Source: an uncultured Clostridia bacterium (GTDB lineage: Bacteria > Bacillota > Clostridia > HGM11327). Taken from it: DNA of 64,000 nucleotides. The notes beneath the pieces were generated by a model that was not told where the DNA came from, did not search any database, and worked only from the letters and a program-made list of their open reading frames with translations. The position numbers were made by a program, and so were the translations under genes. Shown here in pieces: positions 35,716-47,478 of this stretch (position 1 is the stretch's first letter; the number at the start of each line of letters is the position of its first letter). The stretch spans positions 915 through 64,914 of the forward strand of contig CAMEIT010000001.1 of the NCBI GenBank assembly GCA_945918795.1. The letters are read 5' to 3'.

Positions 35716-36010
35716 GCTTTTGCAGGGCTGCCGCCCCATTTCACGCAAGGGTATTTATCGGGGCTGCCACCCCATTTCACGCAAGGGTATTTAGGGTATT
35801 TATCGGGGCTGCCTCCCCGCGCCCCGCCAAATTTCTTTTCGTGAGGCTCTGCCTCACACTCCGCAAGCCGGTCTTCGCGGGGCTGCCGCCCCGCACCCCG
35901 CCAAGCCTTTGAAAAGGCTTGACCGAAACTTTTAAACACTTCGTATAAGGCAATCAGCCTCGCCGGTGATCGTCGAGGCTGATTGCCATTTGGGTTTGAG
36001 GTTTTTTCGC
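35716..36010 (+). repeat. Structured GC-rich intergenic repeat, family B copy 1
   Basis: Inverted copy at 47262-47478. Internal tandem units gggctgccgccccatttcacgcaagggtatttatc, two copies of the 25-nt GC motif ggggctgccgccccgc(a/g)ccccgcc, and the 14-bp hairpin ggcaatcagcctcg...cgaggctgattgcc. Confidence 0.8.
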
Positions 36011-36178: not shown

Positions 36179-37072
36179 CTATTTTTTCTTTTCTACAAGA
36201 AATCCATATGTCTTTTCAACCGCTTCCTTAGCTTTGGCGGTTTTGCATTTCTCAAGAAGCCTTTCGTATAACCCTTGTTTTAAATACATTTTCCCCTCAG
36301 GATCATAATATATACCCATAATTATATCTTCACTAAGACTTACAAAATCTCTGATTTGAGAGAAATAATCAGAACGAAATATCATCAATGTAGTATCATG
36401 CTCATTATCATCATACTTAACATATTCTTCTTTGAATTTTCCCGGGATTGATGATATATGCAACACCTCGCCCTCTATTACAGGAATAATATAAGCATGG
36501 AACAAGGTATCGTTGTGATTTTGTTTGAACATAACCTCTTTCGCCCTTTTTAATAGCGTTTCTAATTTGTGTGTATGCGGAACATTTTCACCTTGTAAAG
36601 AAATATAGGCTTTTAATAGTATCTCAGAAAAGAATATTAGATTATGAAACAATGCCATGGTGCGTTCTTCTACCATTTGGTAAGAGGAGCTATCAATATC
36701 ATATATTCTCTCATCGTTACAGATCTCAATTGCATCATCCAATAAATGAATTAGTACCGGTTCTTGGCATAAGAAAGCATTTACAAACTTGTTTTTTGTT
36801 GCTTTGGATGTCGCAACCAATCCCACGGTGCTTATCCATACAAAACCAAACTCACTTTTAGAAATATGTACATTCTTTTCTTTATCAAAATAATAATGTT
36901 TCTCTTGGAATGTTTCGACCGATATGCCAATGGCATCAAAAAAGCGATTGTATAAATCATCACTATCAAAAACAAAAGCCATTGCAAAAGACGGACCATT
37001 GAAATATCGATGTAATAAGTATTCCAAATCATTATCATTTTTTATGATGATAGCATCTTCTTTTGTTACCAT
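36179..37072 (-). CDS. Hypothetical protein (AT-rich gene)
   Basis: 297-aa ORF with no recognisable motif. Its base composition is visibly AT-richer than the flanking genes. Confidence 0.4.
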   Translation of the reverse strand: MVTKEDAIIIKNDNDLEYLLHRYFNGPSFAMAFVFDSDDLYNRFFDAIGISVETFQEKHYYFDKEKNVHISKSEFGFVWISTVGLVATSKATKNKFVNAFLCQEPVLIHLLDDAIEICNDERIYDIDSSSYQMVEERTMALFHNLIFFSEILLKAYISLQGENVPHTHKLETLLKRAKEVMFKQNHNDTLFHAYIIPVIEGEVLHISSIPGKFKEEYVKYDDNEHDTTLMIFRSDYFSQIRDFVSLSEDIIMGIYYDPEGKMYLKQGLYERLLEKCKTAKAKEAVEKTYGFLVEKKK

Positions 37073-39584: not shown

Positions 39585-41723
39585 TTATATTTCTTTAATA
39601 CCCAAACTCTTTAAATATTGATACGTCCCGTCATAATACTCAGGCAGTCGCGTGCTGTCTTCCCAAAAACCACTGACAGTTTTATTTGAGTTTCCGGCAG
39701 GAACGCATATAACCATTCCGGCTCTTGCGCGGGTAAGCAGTACCCGATATGCGTTCAACATATATTTTTGCAATTCGATATTGTTTTCTGTGTTACCGGT
39801 TTGTCTCACCCATTTTGTCTGCCCATTAAATCGATAAAAACACCATTTGCCGTTTTCATATCTCATATCAGCGTCCCAAAGCAGGCAAGTGTAATCAAGC
39901 TCCAAGCCTTGAACCTGAATTTCTGTTGCGGCATCCTCAAGATAATTCGATGATCTTGTGTCAACTTTATCCTCAAGAAACCAGTGAACTGCGTTCTCGT
40001 CACCCGACGGCAGAATATGTATTCCGAGTGGCTTATACCTCGCAGATTCTTTCGTTACAAGAACTCCGGTTCGTTCTGTGCCCCTCACTTTCTTATGAAG
40101 CCATTCCTTTGCCTTGGCCATATCTCTTGTCAAAACGATCGGATAATGGTCTTTTATCTCATCATATATCCTTGATGCACTTTCATCAAAAGACAATAAT
40201 GCGTGGACAAAAGCAGAGAGCTTTTCCGCCCGATATGATCTGAGCGAAACGCCCAAATGCAAGCTTTCATCAAATGTCACATGCCTATTTTCTTTCAGAA
40301 GCTCATTAACTTTTCCTTCAGCATACTCGGCTTGGATCAATTTCGGAGAAATATAAACGTTCCAATGAGGGAATCTTTCATTTAACGCTTTAATCCATTC
40401 GGATATTCCGGCTTCTCCGGTATTTATCTCTTGCCCACCTCCCACAAGGCAGACAATAGTTGCCCAATCCTCGCGCTGATCAAGCGACCAAATCAGAAAG
40501 GCAGCTTCCGACATGGGAAAATTCGGAACCTTGAGCTTATTTCCATATGTTCCGCCTCTTTTGAGATAATCCGCAAGCCTTTTGTGTGTCCATGACCGTT
40601 GAGCCTCGTCAAATATGGCAACATGCTCAACCTCACCGAATCCGGCCTTCTCCATTTTCACGGCCTTTTCAGGATCAATTTCAAGAACTCCGTTTTCAAC
40701 AGGATTCTTGATTTTTGCCAGCATATTATCGCGGTAGCGGTGAATCATCTGAATTGATTTGCTTACCTCACGACGGGAGTCGGTGAGCTTCTTTTTCTCA
40801 TTTTTATCGCGACACCGCTTGAAGTTATCTTGCGCAAGTGCCTCTGTTAATACTGCAACAAGAGGACCATTGCCGGACAAATAAACAGCACCTTCATCTT
40901 TAACCGGTTCGTCATGTCCCTGATATGTCTGCTTGATTGCAACATCAAGCCCGACAAGTGTTTTCCCGGCACCGGGAACTCCGGTTACAAAGCAGATACT
41001 TTTCTTCTGCTTTTCCTTGCTATCCTGAATGACTTTCAAAATATATGCAATCGTTTTATCGGTGGAAACCTTGTCTGCTTCATGGCGCGTTATATTTTCA
41101 ACTGAATGGTTCTCATATAACGATTTTGCTGCTTCAATGATCGTTGGTGTGGGAGCATAGGGGCTGATAATCCAATTTGAATTAACAGGTGATTCATTCG
41201 GAAATTTCACCAGCACCTCAGAAATCAAATTTGATATGCCATTTTCTCCGGAAACCAACGGATTTACCACCCTATCATCATATACCGACATTTGAATACT
41301 GGTGGACGAATCGTTATGCTTCGTTGCAATCAATATAGGCACAATTATTCTGTCTTGACTGAACTTATGAAAATTCTTTAAGTCAAGCGCATAGTCAAGA
41401 ACTTGGTCTATATCCGATTCTAATATTTTGGATTCCCCCACTTTGAATTCGAGACAAAACACAATCCCTTTTAATAATAAAACCACGTCAATTCTTTTGC
41501 CAAGTCGTGGAATATCATACTCAAAAATAATTTGCCCATTTTCTCCTGAATAGACGGACAAAACCTGCTTCATTATGGAAATTTCAGACTTCCACGCTTC
41601 TCTTGTAGTCGTAAGAGCTTCACCGTGGTATTTATCGCATAGAAGCCCGAGAAGAGAATTACTATCCGCATAAATAAATCTATCAAAACTATCATTGAAC
41701 AAACAGCGAGTGCTATCTCTCAT
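39585..41723 (-). CDS. DUF2075-family ATPase (SF1 helicase-like) with an N-terminal PD-(D/E)xK nuclease-like domain
   Basis: N-terminal EYDIP...RIDVVLL...CLEFKV (E/D/ExK pattern). Walker A FVTGVPGAGKTLVG. Walker B VAIFDEAQR. AAAGGAG sits 8 nt before the ATG at 41723. Confidence 0.7.
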   Translation of the reverse strand: MRDSTRCLFNDSFDRFIYADSNSLLGLLCDKYHGEALTTTREAWKSEISIMKQVLSVYSGENGQIIFEYDIPRLGKRIDVVLLLKGIVFCLEFKVGESKILESDIDQVLDYALDLKNFHKFSQDRIIVPILIATKHNDSSTSIQMSVYDDRVVNPLVSGENGISNLISEVLVKFPNESPVNSNWIISPYAPTPTIIEAAKSLYENHSVENITRHEADKVSTDKTIAYILKVIQDSKEKQKKSICFVTGVPGAGKTLVGLDVAIKQTYQGHDEPVKDEGAVYLSGNGPLVAVLTEALAQDNFKRCRDKNEKKKLTDSRREVSKSIQMIHRYRDNMLAKIKNPVENGVLEIDPEKAVKMEKAGFGEVEHVAIFDEAQRSWTHKRLADYLKRGGTYGNKLKVPNFPMSEAAFLIWSLDQREDWATIVCLVGGGQEINTGEAGISEWIKALNERFPHWNVYISPKLIQAEYAEGKVNELLKENRHVTFDESLHLGVSLRSYRAEKLSAFVHALLSFDESASRIYDEIKDHYPIVLTRDMAKAKEWLHKKVRGTERTGVLVTKESARYKPLGIHILPSGDENAVHWFLEDKVDTRSSNYLEDAATEIQVQGLELDYTCLLWDADMRYENGKWCFYRFNGQTKWVRQTGNTENNIELQKYMLNAYRVLLTRARAGMVICVPAGNSNKTVSGFWEDSTRLPEYYDGTYQYLKSLGIKEI

Positions 41724-41768
41724 TGGAACTACTCCTTTCAACCGCATATTTCCCGGGACTTATCCTTC

Positions 41769-41930
41769 TATCGCCGGTTCTCAGATTTATCCGGTACAAT
41801 CTCAATAATATCATTCATCGTGCAACCGAGTGCCGTACATATTTTAACCAAAACATCGCTTGAAACAGTTGCGCCGTCTTTTTTCATCTTTGCGAGAGTT
41901 GCGGGACTGATTACTATGGAGCAATAAATA
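41769..41930 (-). pseudogene. Truncated XRE-family HTH regulator (only the C-terminal part of the HTH remains)
   Basis: The minus-strand frame reads ...ISPATLAKMKKDGATVSSDVLVKICTALGCTMNDIIEIVPDKSENRR*. An in-frame stop lies immediately upstream, and the first HTH helix is absent. The remnant abuts the 3' end of the 984-aa gene. Confidence 0.55.
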
Positions 41931-41941
41931 TTTTAAATAAA

Positions 41942-44896
41942 CTATCTCTTATCACGATGTGAACATTTATAGCATACACCAAGATTAACGTGATTTACTC
42001 CACCGTATGATACAAAATTAGCCTCTTGATTTATCTCACCGCACAGCTCACACTGAATCCACCTTCTGCCTAATGAATCGCGAATCTGGTATTCTTGCTG
42101 AGTAAACTTATCCTTAACTTCATTATAACCGTTAATACAACGCAACTCAGCAATTTGTTCTTGTCGTGCTTGCTCAATTTCAAGAGCTTTCTCGCGCTCT
42201 TTTCTTAATTTCTCTTGCCGACGAAGATATTTTTCTCGCGATATGCGGTCCTGCTCTGCACATCTATACATACTATCTATACGTTTTTGTTCTTGTTCTT
42301 CGCATACTCGTCTATGTTTCTCTTCCGACTCTTTTTCTCGCATAATTTTATATTCCGGAAAAAGTTCGTCTATAAAAGTGCTTTCCATTCCTTTTATACC
42401 AAATAGACTCAAATTGTTTTTTGCTCGCGTAATGCCAACGTAAAACAATCGTCTTTCTTCTTGCTCACCATCCGCATTATCCTTGGAACGACTAAATATA
42501 TTTGGTCTTGATGATGGGAAACGACCGTCATACACATCTACCATATAAACGCTATCGTATTCCAGGCCTTTGCTTGAGTGGATAGTTGAAAGAATTACAG
42601 CATTATTTGCTTTGGAGAAAAAATCTTGCTGTATTAATTTTTCCAGTTCTGCAAGTCTATTCAAGAACTTTTGTATATCAGGCTCTTGTTTTGAAAGAAT
42701 TTGGAGGATCTCAATCTTTCCGCTATCAAGATGATTATTTTTCACGTATTCCCCATATCCATTATCCATTAAAATTGAAATCGCGTCCGAAGCTTTGGCT
42801 TTCCCAACTCTTCCCATTACGCTTCTGAAATTATCAGCTATATTTTTCTGACGTTTTTTAAGATATTGCATCTGACCTTCAACAGCATCATAAACAGACA
42901 TGTGTTTATATTTGCAATTCTTAAGCACATACTCTTTTTGCTGGCTCTTAAGATATAGGATACCCTTATTGCATATTTTATCAAACGATTCAGCGTCATT
43001 TTCATTCAATGCAAGCGAGAGATACGCTATTATTTCCTTAACTACTCGATTCGCAAAAAAATTCATTTCGGGCTTACGTAGCCTAAAAGGAACGCCATTC
43101 CTTAAAAACAGATCAATAAGAACAACGGAGCTCTCATTATCTCGATATAGAAATGCAGTTTCTCTATCCGCGGTCTTTGCTATTTCAAGCAAGCGTGTGT
43201 ACTGCTTTTCTCTTGAGTCAACCTGTTCTAAAAACACTGCTTCGCCATCACCGCGCTCGGCTGTCATATTTTTCTCATAGCGGCCTTTATTATGTGAAAT
43301 AAATGATTGCGCCTTATCAACAATTTGCCTTGTTGATCGATAATTGCGCTCCATTCGAAGAATATATGGGTTAAGATAATCATATTTGAAATTCAATAAC
43401 GCCTTTGGGTATGCTGCACGGAAACCATATATACTTTGATCTTCGTCGCCCACCATAAAGATATTATTTTCTTTGGCGAGAATCTTAATAATCTCGTGCT
43501 GGATTTTGGATGTGTCCTGAGCCTCATCCACACAAATGTATTTATAGCGTTCTCTCAACGCGGATGTAATTTCATCATCTTTTTTTAAAATCCAAAGAGC
43601 AAATACCATTTGGTCGTCAAAATCCATTTGGCATTTCTCTTGCAGTGACTTCTTATAAGTTTCATACATTGCATTCAAATGTGGGTATTCGGTTTCTATC
43701 TCACTGATTTGCTCTTTCGTGAGCATCATATTTTTTATGTATGTGATAGCAGTGGAAAGCTCAAGAATATCATTCTCAGTCGCATATTCACCATAGTGTT
43801 GCTTAAATATTTCCCCAAGCAAACGCCGTCTTTCATCGCCTTGAATCTGTTTTCTTCGTTGTTTATGGACTTTACTACAATAGTCCACATACACTTTAAG
43901 CGCCAAACTGTTAATTGTACGGAAATCAATTTGCTTACCAAATTTATCACCGAATTGGGCAGAAAACCTGTTCTCCATCTCCTTTGCTGCTGCAGTATTA
44001 TACGTAATGGCAAGAATATTTTCAGGCGCAATGTTTTTATTGAGCACCATGTGACCCAAGCGTTCAACAAGCACTGTGGTTTTTCCCGAGCCCGGGACTG
44101 CCAATAATAGATTTGATCCCTCAACGGCAAGCAAAGCTCGTTCCTGTTGCTTATTAAGGTTAATATGATATTTTTCCTTAAATGAGCAATACTGCTCATT
44201 GTTTTCAATATCTTCTCTACACGGTGGCAAGCACTGTCCATTTTTCAAGCCTATATAAGTCAGAAAATCGTTTTTGCTGATAAAACCGGACGTGTAAAAG
44301 CATTCAAACCCATCTGCAGAAACATCGGTTACTCTTACTATGCATGCGTCGGAATCTGATTGTAGCTGAAAGAAAAGATCTATACAACCACTTTGAATAT
44401 CATAATTATTAAATGCTTTTTTAGGATTCTGCCAATGGAATTCCAGTCTACCGCTTGTTTCTTTGCAAACCAGTTGATCTTCTAACAGATCAGATAAATC
44501 AAATAGCCATATGACTTTGTTACCTAAATTAAAATAGAAATTGTTTCTATCGTCAAAATCTTTCACCGACATTATACTATGCTGAAACTCAATAACAGTG
44601 CGATCAATCATGACATCTGCTCGATGTTTTGTATCTCCCAGAGATAGTTTTACTTCCTGATTTTCTTTAGGAAACAAAGACTGCCATTCGTTATGCCAGG
44701 GAGATATATCATAACTATGGCTACGTTCCCAAGTATCAGAGCAAATGTGATTTTGCTTATGTGCAAAATGGTGTTGACGAATTTCACCTTTTTTCATAAT
44801 CAGAGGTGCTCCACAGTAGGGGCAATAATATTCTTGATTCCCGTGCGTATCCTCAATATGAACTCGATTATCGTTGTAATCAATTGCAAATAACAT
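41942..44896 (-). CDS. Fusion protein: CoiA-like zinc-ribbon nuclease domain, UvrD/PcrA-like SF1 helicase, coiled coil, and a C-terminal zinc ribbon
   Basis: N-terminal YYCPYCGAPL...HHFAHK...HRADVMIDRTVIEFQH (CoiA-like). Helicase motifs AVPGSGKTT, CVDEAQD, IYGFR, NYRST, TIHSSKGLEYD and VGITRAK. The C-terminus has a CxxC...CxxC pattern. An extended -10 (TGGTATAAT) lies upstream. Confidence 0.75.
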   Translation of the reverse strand: MLFAIDYNDNRVHIEDTHGNQEYYCPYCGAPLIMKKGEIRQHHFAHKQNHICSDTWERSHSYDISPWHNEWQSLFPKENQEVKLSLGDTKHRADVMIDRTVIEFQHSIMSVKDFDDRNNFYFNLGNKVIWLFDLSDLLEDQLVCKETSGRLEFHWQNPKKAFNNYDIQSGCIDLFFQLQSDSDACIVRVTDVSADGFECFYTSGFISKNDFLTYIGLKNGQCLPPCREDIENNEQYCSFKEKYHINLNKQQERALLAVEGSNLLLAVPGSGKTTVLVERLGHMVLNKNIAPENILAITYNTAAAKEMENRFSAQFGDKFGKQIDFRTINSLALKVYVDYCSKVHKQRRKQIQGDERRRLLGEIFKQHYGEYATENDILELSTAITYIKNMMLTKEQISEIETEYPHLNAMYETYKKSLQEKCQMDFDDQMVFALWILKKDDEITSALRERYKYICVDEAQDTSKIQHEIIKILAKENNIFMVGDEDQSIYGFRAAYPKALLNFKYDYLNPYILRMERNYRSTRQIVDKAQSFISHNKGRYEKNMTAERGDGEAVFLEQVDSREKQYTRLLEIAKTADRETAFLYRDNESSVVLIDLFLRNGVPFRLRKPEMNFFANRVVKEIIAYLSLALNENDAESFDKICNKGILYLKSQQKEYVLKNCKYKHMSVYDAVEGQMQYLKKRQKNIADNFRSVMGRVGKAKASDAISILMDNGYGEYVKNNHLDSGKIEILQILSKQEPDIQKFLNRLAELEKLIQQDFFSKANNAVILSTIHSSKGLEYDSVYMVDVYDGRFPSSRPNIFSRSKDNADGEQEERRLFYVGITRAKNNLSLFGIKGMESTFIDELFPEYKIMREKESEEKHRRVCEEQEQKRIDSMYRCAEQDRISREKYLRRQEKLRKEREKALEIEQARQEQIAELRCINGYNEVKDKFTQQEYQIRDSLGRRWIQCELCGEINQEANFVSYGGVNHVNLGVCYKCSHRDKR

Positions 44897-45017
44897 ATAA
44901 GCTTGCCCCTTTCTTAATGATCATTTTTATTATACCATAAATTTTCTATATTTTTTACAAGATTTAATAAATATAAAGGTGACAAATAACTCTGCCACCT
45001 TATCTTTGCTTCCTGCG

Positions 45018-45217
45018 AGGTAAATATTACTCCGTTGCCGTCATTCTCCGCTCACGGTCTCGCCTTTCCAGTCTATGATGCCGCCGAACTCCACAAAGCA
45101 CACCAAGCAAACGACCGTGCTGTGATGCAGGCATATGGGTTTGATGTCAAGACAATGACGGAAAGCAGTTGTGTTGCGGAGCTTATGAAGATGTATCAAA
45201 AGTTAGTGGGATGTTGA
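45018..45217 (+). pseudogene. C-terminal remnant of an N6-adenine DNA methyltransferase / type IIG-ISP (MmeI- or PglX-like) enzyme
   Basis: ...VYDAAELHKAHQANDRAVMQAYGFD...ELMKMYQKLV resembles the conserved C-terminal tail of these methyltransferases. A stop codon lies immediately upstream, so only about 66 codons survive. Confidence 0.45.
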
Positions 45218-47261: not shown

Positions 47262-47478
47262 ACGAAAACCAAATGGCAATCCGACTCGACGACCACCGGC
47301 GAGGCTGATTGCCAACCACAAAGTGTTTTAAAGTTTCGCTCAAGCCTTTTCAAAGGCTTGCGGAGTGTGAGGCAGAGCCTCACGAAGAAAAGCTTAGCGG
47401 GGCGCGGGGCGGGGCGGCAGCCCCGAGAGGACGGCTTGCGGAGTGTGGGGCAGAGCCCCACAAAATGATAAAAATGTT
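47262..47478 (-). repeat. Family B repeat, copy 2 (inverted relative to 35716-36010)
   Basis: Reverse complement aligns to 35815-36000, including gtgaggcagagcctcac and the GC-rich ggggcggcagcccc motif. Confidence 0.8.

Follow-up and report, generated by a model that had tools for sequence, protein, structure and literature searches.

A CoiA-type nuclease fused to a UvrD-like helicase in a defence hotspot of Clostridia: a candidate single-protein effector against invading DNA

The window analysed here, a stretch of 64,000 nucleotides from an uncultured Clostridia bacterium (GenBank assembly GCA_945918795.1, contig CAMEIT010000001.1, positions 915 to 64,914 of the forward strand), contains a gene for a protein of 984 amino acids (aa), here called CoiA-UvrD, in which a CoiA_N zinc ribbon and a CoiA-type PD-(D/E)xK nuclease are followed by a UvrD/PcrA-like superfamily 1A (SF1A) helicase, a charged helix and a Cys4 zinc ribbon. 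The gene has intact catalytic motifs, is under strong purifying selection, resides in a defence hotspot, bears the signature of horizontal transfer and belongs to no named defence system, and on balance the favoured reading is that CoiA-UvrD is a single-polypeptide nuclease-helicase effector directed against invading DNA, that of phages and of other mobile elements.

The open reading frame (ORF) is intact, and the N-termini of 30 homologues in the family alignment line up with its ATG at 44896; the identical 984-aa protein is present on 8 contigs (coordinates are collected in Table 1). A first-pass annotation, made from the DNA letters alone, had described a CoiA nuclease, a UvrD helicase, a charged coil and a zinc ribbon, and this description proved to be correct by Pfam searches, by motifs and by structure modelling. 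The full-length AlphaFold model, with a predicted local distance difference test score (pLDDT) of 77, shows a UvrD/PcrA-like core, a long charged helix and a beta-rich tail with CxxC pairs, and the structure model of the N-terminal module reaches a pLDDT of 92.

Within the N-terminal module, C25, C28 and H46 do not vary among 67 diverse homologues and C52 shows a conservation of at least 90%, giving a putative CCHC zinc site, and the nuclease residues E81, H91, D94, E103 and Q105 are invariant or nearly so (31 to 67 homologues). The CoiA of S. pneumoniae has been described as a structure-specific endonuclease with an N-terminal zinc finger and an active site of D95 and E105, which cuts 5'-tailed duplex junctions, resolves displacement loops (D-loops) and acts synergistically with the RadA helicase (bioRxiv 10.1101/2024.02.06.579203). 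The positions of D94 and E103 agree with this active site, and since the module combines a conserved zinc site with nuclease residues at CoiA-equivalent positions, it is, as judged by its sequence, a genuine CoiA-type nuclease, here joined covalently to a helicase. Its CoiA membership comes from Pfam, where CoiA_N and CoiA_nuc both lie above their gathering scores; the CoiA_nuc match covers just profile positions 29-85 of 158, and in the NCBIfam search no CoiA model matches the CoiA-UvrD protein. Like CoiA proper (PF25164 + PF06054), CoiA-UvrD thus has an N-terminal zinc ribbon and an atypical PD-(D/E)xK core, and CoiA too works with a helicase, RadA. CoiA is, however, a stand-alone protein of ~320-370 aa that is competence-regulated and required for transformation, whereas CoiA-UvrD is fused to its helicase and lies outside competence contexts, in defence islands, with low guanine-plus-cytosine (GC) content and a patchy distribution.

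The module by itself is widespread, matching 4,215 cluster representatives at E <= 1e-3, of which 249 reach E <= 1e-30, and it stands at the N-terminus both of UvrD fusions of 840-1116 aa and of proteins of 300-470 aa with Pfam-unannotated C-terminal halves, alignments to which reach approximately residue 215-230 of CoiA-UvrD. In many proteins of 300-680 aa (e.g. P0176, P0182, P0186, P0222 and P0214), a module 37-45% identical to this one is joined to ~200 residues that have no Pfam annotation, and in P0214 the CoiA-like module is C-terminal instead; the module has evidently been combined with several partner domains. A further observation is that residues 1-55 (window 44732-44896) weakly match the first 56 positions of the PADLOC model for DruB of Druantia type I (E 1.2e-4), which hints that the start of DruB, a protein of unassigned function, may be the same zinc ribbon as CoiA_N.

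The claim of a complete SF1A helicase core likewise holds, with all motifs located and invariant across the family alignment: the Q-motif LNKQQERA (residues 247-254), the Walker A motif G269-S-G-K272-T, DEAQD (457-461), GDEDQSIYGFR and YVGITRAK. PcrA, UvrD and Rep come top in a sequence search of the PDB (E 1e-65 to 1e-54) and first in the Foldseek comparison of the structure model with the PDB (E 1e-34; target-normalised template-modelling (TM) scores of 0.58-0.67), AddA, AdnB and RecB lying far behind in the latter (E 1e-24 to 1e-17). With UvrD, PcrA and Rep the protein shares the full 1A/1B/2A/2B core and all motifs, at 24-28% identity over ~650 residues, but it differs from them in the extra 240-residue N-terminal nuclease module and in the coiled helix and zinc ribbon that take the place of the usual C-terminal tail. 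Orthology to PcrA, UvrD or Rep was considered and rejected on the NCBIfam scores, all of them far under the equivalog cut-offs (pcrA 310 vs 911, rep 287 vs 951 and uvrD 255 vs 1144 bits), as was orthology to AddA or RecB (addA 123 vs 708 and recB 110 vs 696 bits). AddA, RecB and AdnB also combine a UvrD-like SF1A motor and a PD-(D/E)xK nuclease in one chain; in these multi-subunit enzymes, however, the nuclease is C-terminal and of RecB type, whereas in CoiA-UvrD it is N-terminal and of CoiA type.

Beyond the core, the charged helix is the most variable region of the family (variable columns 880-990 of alignment A1). In the C-terminal zinc ribbon, for which neither Pfam nor PADLOC has a match, the beta strands (944-974) are modelled at a pLDDT of ~80-86, and the CxxC pairs are kept in 27 of 31 homologues, the remaining four having another tail. 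This alternative tail, found in P0032, P0051, P0085 and P0113 (A1 columns 930-1030) as well as in the distant homologue at L018 9992-12793 (L018_B), replaces the Cys4 ribbon and has the form VGMxxxHxxYGELTI.../HATYGEGIIVG...; it may be akin to the RNA-polymerase-binding Tudor tail of PcrA/UvrD, an unconfirmed lead as Pfam finds nothing in the tail.

The earlier statement that this architecture corresponds to no named system is borne out. Among the PADLOC v2.0.0 models, none covers more than the helicase core, the matches of RTasHel and GajB being limited to residues ~242-839, the generic UvrD core; searched separately, the N-terminal 245 aa give a weak DruB match and the C-terminal 154 aa give none, and full-text literature searches returned no description of a CoiA-UvrD fusion architecture, nor did they yield anything useful on PDC-S41 or on what DruB does. 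The likeness to Nhi and Gabija that had been proposed is confined to architecture. Gabija, too, ties a UvrD-like helicase to a nuclease in a defence context, and its GajB models match the core; its nuclease, however, is the separate OLD/TOPRIM protein GajA, whereas that of CoiA-UvrD is fused and of the CoiA-type PD-(D/E)xK kind. Nhi, Hna and DdmD are single-protein nuclease-helicase effectors, but their nuclease families and domain order differ from those of CoiA-UvrD, and their helicases belong to SF1B (Upf1/Dna2-like), as is the case for Nhi, or to superfamily 2, not to SF1A. The 25 best PADLOC matches include no Nhi model, and no such model matches the N- or C-terminal parts. A CoiA domain has been reported in one experimentally validated defence system of E. 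coli (PMC9519451).

More than 120 protein clusters (clustering at 90% identity), 59-100% identical, have the CoiA-UvrD architecture, none of them named and one of them with 1,425 member sequences; their sources are gut metagenomes and metagenome-assembled genomes labelled Clostridia, Acutalibacteraceae and Oscillospiraceae. The nuclease and helicase regions are strongly conserved within the family. Among GTDB species representatives there are at least five full-length matches (5 among the matches listed).

The genomic surroundings of the family strengthen the earlier suggestion that this is a defence gene, which remains a candidate. Approximately 17 homologue contexts, phylogenetically related to one another, were compared, and at least 9 of them contain defence genes that are recognised by PADLOC or similar to such genes. 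These comprise Hachiman HamA/HamB (L103, E 1e-236); AbiLi (L094, E 1e-64); a type IV methyl-directed restriction enzyme (E 1e-225) with an SNF2 helicase and a Mokosh-like helicase (L095/L096); type III restriction-modification (L018); GmrSD with HNH and DUF2075 (L017); HKD+Snf2 (L130); a type IV restriction enzyme with an HNH protein and a DUF2075-like gene (L136); LlaJI-type restriction-modification (L011); and GmrSD with an SF1-DUF2726 helicase (L148). As a separate observation, an 899-aa UvrD-like helicase with a cysteine-rich C-terminus, Cas4/RecB-like in appearance, is encoded at L018 488-3187, across the type III restriction-modification genes from the CoiA-UvrD homologue; the idea that L018 holds two CoiA-UvrD paralogues was rejected, this gene being an unrelated UvrD helicase that is 25% identical in the core only.

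The surroundings of the gene in the window also point to defence: a full-length PDC-S41 gene, a PADLOC candidate system, is its neighbour, and remnants of restriction-modification-linked genes lie on either side. The PNPOx of the window and that of L095/L096 are 79% identical, and in L095/L096 a CoiA-UvrD gene (60% identical) is likewise one gene from PNPOx, which points to a common neighbourhood. Among the relatives found, the closest (PNPOx 86-88% identical; L162-L166 (1-20393) and L158) have PNPOx in a conserved operon PNPOx-LMWPc-NUDIX-PDF (peptide deformylase), the flanks of which differ between strains and contain MzaB-E together with a C5 methyltransferase and Vsr, SoFic, barnase/barstar, integrases and a 994-aa defence-associated reverse transcriptase (DRT) of the RT_UG5-nitrilase type (E 9e-186). 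CoiA-UvrD was not found in the PNPOx-flanking loci of the nearest relatives sampled. This variable defence content, together with the absence of CoiA-UvrD from the nearest relatives sampled, marks the PNPOx-flanking slot as a defence hotspot whose contents turn over rapidly. Exact-sequence matches to the PNPOx and Zip proteins of the window were either lacking or showed the same arrangement, and within-species presence/absence polymorphism was not seen among them.

The composition of the gene points to horizontal transfer, as do the complete and truncated tRNA-Pro genes downstream of some homologues (see below). As had been noted at first pass, it is AT-rich relative to its surroundings, with 37.3% GC and a GC content at third codon positions (GC3) of 33% against 44.0 +/- 3.4% and 45.6 +/- 5.9%, respectively, for the ORFs of the window, among which it has the second-lowest GC. 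In 14 of 16 loci the homologues have 33-40% GC, the exceptions being L018 and L136 with 43-45%, and the GC of the hosts ranges over 35-54%; in L009, for example, the homologue has 39% GC and the host 54%. Syntenic conservation at core-genome GC content, as might be expected of a housekeeping helicase, was thus not what was found: GC is low, and in the closest relatives the slot is filled otherwise.

We infer the enzymatic activities of CoiA-UvrD, its substrate and an anti-phage or anti-plasmid phenotype as follows. The UvrD/PcrA-type SF1A motor would load on single-stranded DNA (ssDNA) and translocate 3'->5' with ATP, bringing the N-terminal endonuclease to junctions of ssDNA and double-stranded DNA (dsDNA), such as the forks, flaps and D-loops that form while foreign DNA replicates or recombines. 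At these ssDNA-dsDNA junctions, the CoiA-type PD-(D/E)xK endonuclease would cut the foreign DNA, and the variable charged helix together with the C-terminal Cys4 zinc ribbon would probably serve in oligomerisation or in the recognition of a target or partner. A bolder version of this model, which is speculative and in our judgement unlikely, holds that CoiA-UvrD is a third nuclease/helicase machine for D-loop processing beside CoiA-RadA and YraN-ComM, in this case covalently fused, and that evolution has turned it into an immune sensor-effector, which would recognise and destroy the branched recombination or replication intermediates of invading DNA rather than respond to a sequence or a modification, many members of the family being under the control of DUF6442 and an XRE repressor.

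Several points weigh against the interpretation of CoiA-UvrD as an immune effector. CoiA proper is a recombination protein and not an immune protein. The mean column identity across species, 70%, is unusually high for an immune gene. Three contexts (L009, L012 and L098) have no defence neighbour, the sole nearby mobile-element gene in L098 being an integrase, and in one very abundant gut species the cassette occupies a fixed site beside feoAB (~12 contigs). It has to be noted as well that the enrichment of PADLOC matches at E <= 1e-20 among neighbour proteins of the homologues, 10 of 25 as compared with 1 of 42 other window proteins taken as a control, is indicative and not a statistic, the scanned neighbours having been picked by size and not at random.

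These points bear most directly on the main rival explanation, in which CoiA-UvrD is a host recombination or repair factor, a fused equivalent of CoiA-RadA that resolves or dismantles D-loops in homologous recombination or natural transformation, and to which a low, though real, probability is given. That both CoiA domains score above their Pfam cut-offs, that the D and E of the active site occupy matching positions, and that CoiA is synergistic with a helicase would fit such a role, as would the 37-45% identity of the N-terminal module to many stand-alone CoiA-like proteins of 300-470 aa; the match to the CoiA_nuc profile, however, extends over only a third of it, and NCBIfam provides no CoiA match. 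The strong sequence conservation and the fixed cassette locus in one abundant species are also what a host factor would show, but the gene is absent from the syntenic slot of the closest relatives, which holds defence systems instead, its GC falls well short of the host's in all cases but two, and the full-length matches listed among GTDB species representatives are as few as given above. The tail of the distant members and of the four close ones, possibly Tudor-like as in PcrA/UvrD, would again fit a host factor, but no competence or recombination genes were found in any of the ~17 contexts, and the immune-effector interpretation is accordingly preferred over this one.

A second question is whether CoiA-UvrD acts alone. 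In approximately half of the distinct contexts it is the third cistron after genes for a DUF6442 membrane protein of 105-120 aa and a 71-aa XRE-type helix-turn-helix (HTH) protein, the starts and stops of which overlap or abut so that the cistrons appear translationally coupled, and the DUF6442 / XRE-HTH / CoiA-UvrD set looks like a three-gene operon. In the window itself, the gene for a DUF2075/Schlafen-group-3 helicase, the PADLOC candidate PDC-S41, follows CoiA-UvrD on the same strand 194 bp downstream with no terminator-like site between them. The single-gene nature assumed at first pass is thus not established; that CoiA-UvrD and PDC-S41 together form a two-gene system, or that CoiA-UvrD more broadly belongs to a system of several genes, nevertheless appears quite improbable. 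Relatives of the DUF2075 gene do lie within four genes of CoiA-UvrD in L017, where the relative is 75% identical to the PDC-S41 of the window and 3.5 kb away, and in L136, where it adjoins the homologue, but DUF2075 is missing from most contexts, and order and distance vary, the gene lying directly downstream in the window but upstream in L017, where three genes separate the two. What fills the space between CoiA-UvrD and PDC-S41 is, furthermore, the 3' remnant of a dead HTH gene, a sign that deletion brought the two genes together, and PADLOC lists PDC-S41 as a single-gene candidate. As for DUF6442 and XRE-HTH, neither genes nor remnants were found in the window, and both are also absent in the closest relatives L009, L011 and L014. 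The PDC-S41 gene may be an independent resident of the island or a partner.

A third possibility, that this is a gene of a mobile element, with a replication, recombination or anti-defence function for an integrative element or prophage, is very improbable. The low GC relative to the hosts would be compatible with it, and so would the tRNA-Pro genes beside some homologues: a tRNA-Pro(GGG) lies 290 bp downstream in L009 (13230-13305) and L098 (9548-9623), the non-coding stretch of roughly 330 bp from gene to tRNA being highly conserved, and in L011 (13256-13301) and L014 (3834-3878) just the 3' 45-46 nt of tRNA-Pro are left, followed by unrelated island DNA. Such a truncated tRNA-Pro is, on its sequence, an att-type scar of integrative elements, but the homologues of L011 and L014 lie outside the tRNA-inserted element. 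Similarly, the helicase part has a match to PHROG 1967, a family of phage DNA helicases (E 2e-117), but none of 50,697 phage and 72,556 plasmid records covers the fusion at >=80%, and IMG/VR yielded zinc-ribbon-like fragments only, the fusion itself not being found there. An integrase is located ~4 kb upstream of the homologue in L098, and inverted repeats of ~200 nt enclose an 11.3-kb segment of the window around CoiA-UvrD (described below); this segment, however, has no integrase, transposase or structural phage gene in its ORF listing or by Pfam. Finally, an orphan or degenerate GajB-type helicase of Gabija is exceedingly improbable, as the PADLOC GajB models (E 1e-71 to 1e-23) match the generic core only, where RTasHel, the helicase model of another system, scores equally well, no GajA/OLD-type ATPase-TOPRIM gene is found by Pfam or PADLOC among the adjacent window ORFs scanned, and the N-terminal nuclease and C-terminal tail have no GajB counterpart.

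Single-protein nuclease-helicase effectors are already known, and the architecture as such will not surprise specialists in defence; its members, however, are many and common in the human gut, and the family is as yet without a name. If CoiA-UvrD is active in defence, a widespread unnamed nuclease-helicase family of human-gut Clostridia would join the immune repertoire, the recently described D-loop resolvase chemistry of CoiA would be linked to anti-phage and anti-plasmid immunity, and a natural single-chain model of nuclease-helicase coupling would become available. The flanks of the PNPOx-LMWPc-NUDIX-PDF operon are a useful hotspot in which to mine further systems in poorly cultured bacteria.

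Table 1. Features of the CoiA-UvrD locus in the window and DUF6442/XRE-HTH gene pairs upstream of homologues
Feature	Sequence	Position	Strand	Residues	Evidence or detail
CoiA-UvrD fusion gene, complete	Window	41942..44896	-	1-984	ORF listing; 984 aa + stop codon
CoiA_N zinc ribbon	Window	44738..44869	-	10-53	Pfam E 3.5e-14, 52.5 bits vs cut-off 26.3; putative ligands C25, C28, H46, C52
PD-(D/E)xK nuclease core, CoiA type	Window	44477..44719	-	~60-140	E81, H91, D94, E103-F-Q105 motif
CoiA_nuc domain	Window		-	86-138	Pfam E 1.7e-6, 28.7 bits vs 20.3
Beta-rich second half of N-terminal module	Window	44192..44476	-	~141-235	Conserved with stand-alone CoiA-like proteins; strands 142-207 in model
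SF1A UvrD/PcrA-like helicase core	Window	42392..44161	-	246-835	Pfam, PDB sequence matches, Foldseek
UvrD-helicase domain	Window		-	247-507	Pfam E 5e-59
UvrD_C domain	Window		-	514-831	Pfam E 4e-43
Single long charged helix	Window	42119..42361	-	846-926	DSSP of structure model; 81 residues, 51% E/D/K/R
C-terminal Cys4 zinc ribbon	Window	41945..42067	-	944-984	C949xxC952 ... C975xxC978
Putative own promoter and ribosome-binding site	Window	44906..44937	-		Consensus match; TGGTATAAT at 44937-44929, GAAAGGGG at 44913-44906
DUF2075/Schlafen-group-3 helicase, PADLOC candidate PDC-S41	Window	39585..41747	-		PADLOC E 1e-244, full length; Pfam SLFN-g3_helicase E 4e-64
HTH_3 gene remnant, 39 aa	Window	41795..41911	-		vs L011: blastn 80% over 117 bp; tblastn 85% over 39 aa, E 2e-21
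MmeI_C remnant, 60 aa, of an MmeI-family restriction-modification enzyme	Window	45035..45217	+		Pfam E 2.9e-6, 27.9 bits vs cut-off 27
DUF6442 + XRE-HTH pair	L094	552-1087
DUF6442 + XRE-HTH pair	L147	3742-4277
DUF6442 + XRE-HTH pair	L098	5845-6380
DUF6442 + XRE-HTH pair	L012	9463-9998

The promoter that had been proposed for the gene was recovered as a consensus match to an extended -10 element on the minus strand, with the putative ribosome-binding site 9 nt ahead of the ATG, and a terminator-like hairpin (45001-44976) just upstream insulates it. Because its TTGTAA -35 hexamer stands at a distance of 20 nt, the promoter escaped a simple sigma-70 scan. The degraded regulatory and methyltransferase genes described beside CoiA-UvrD are both real, the former being the HTH_3 remnant, whose counterpart in L011 heads a C5-methyltransferase/LlaJI-type restriction-modification cluster, and the latter the MmeI_C remnant. 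The MmeI-family remnant also occurs ahead of the L009 and L014 homologues, where the upstream sequence shows 86% identity to bases 44998-45094 of the window. Another neighbour encodes an acidic 190-aa protein with no matches in Pfam or PADLOC.

Two further features of the window were observed. The ORF with the lowest GC, at 36179-37072 (-), encodes 297 aa at 32.7% GC and a GC3 of 30%, with no match in Pfam, PADLOC or NCBIfam, and could be a further gene of foreign origin. The 64-kb window also has a GC-rich repeat of ~200 nt, laden with hairpins, in just two copies, at 35802-35997 and 47265-47468, in inverted orientation and with arms that are 89-90% complementary; between them lies the 11.3-kb segment with CoiA-UvrD, PDC-S41, PNPOx, LMWPc, an aldo-keto reductase, Zip and two genes of unknown function.

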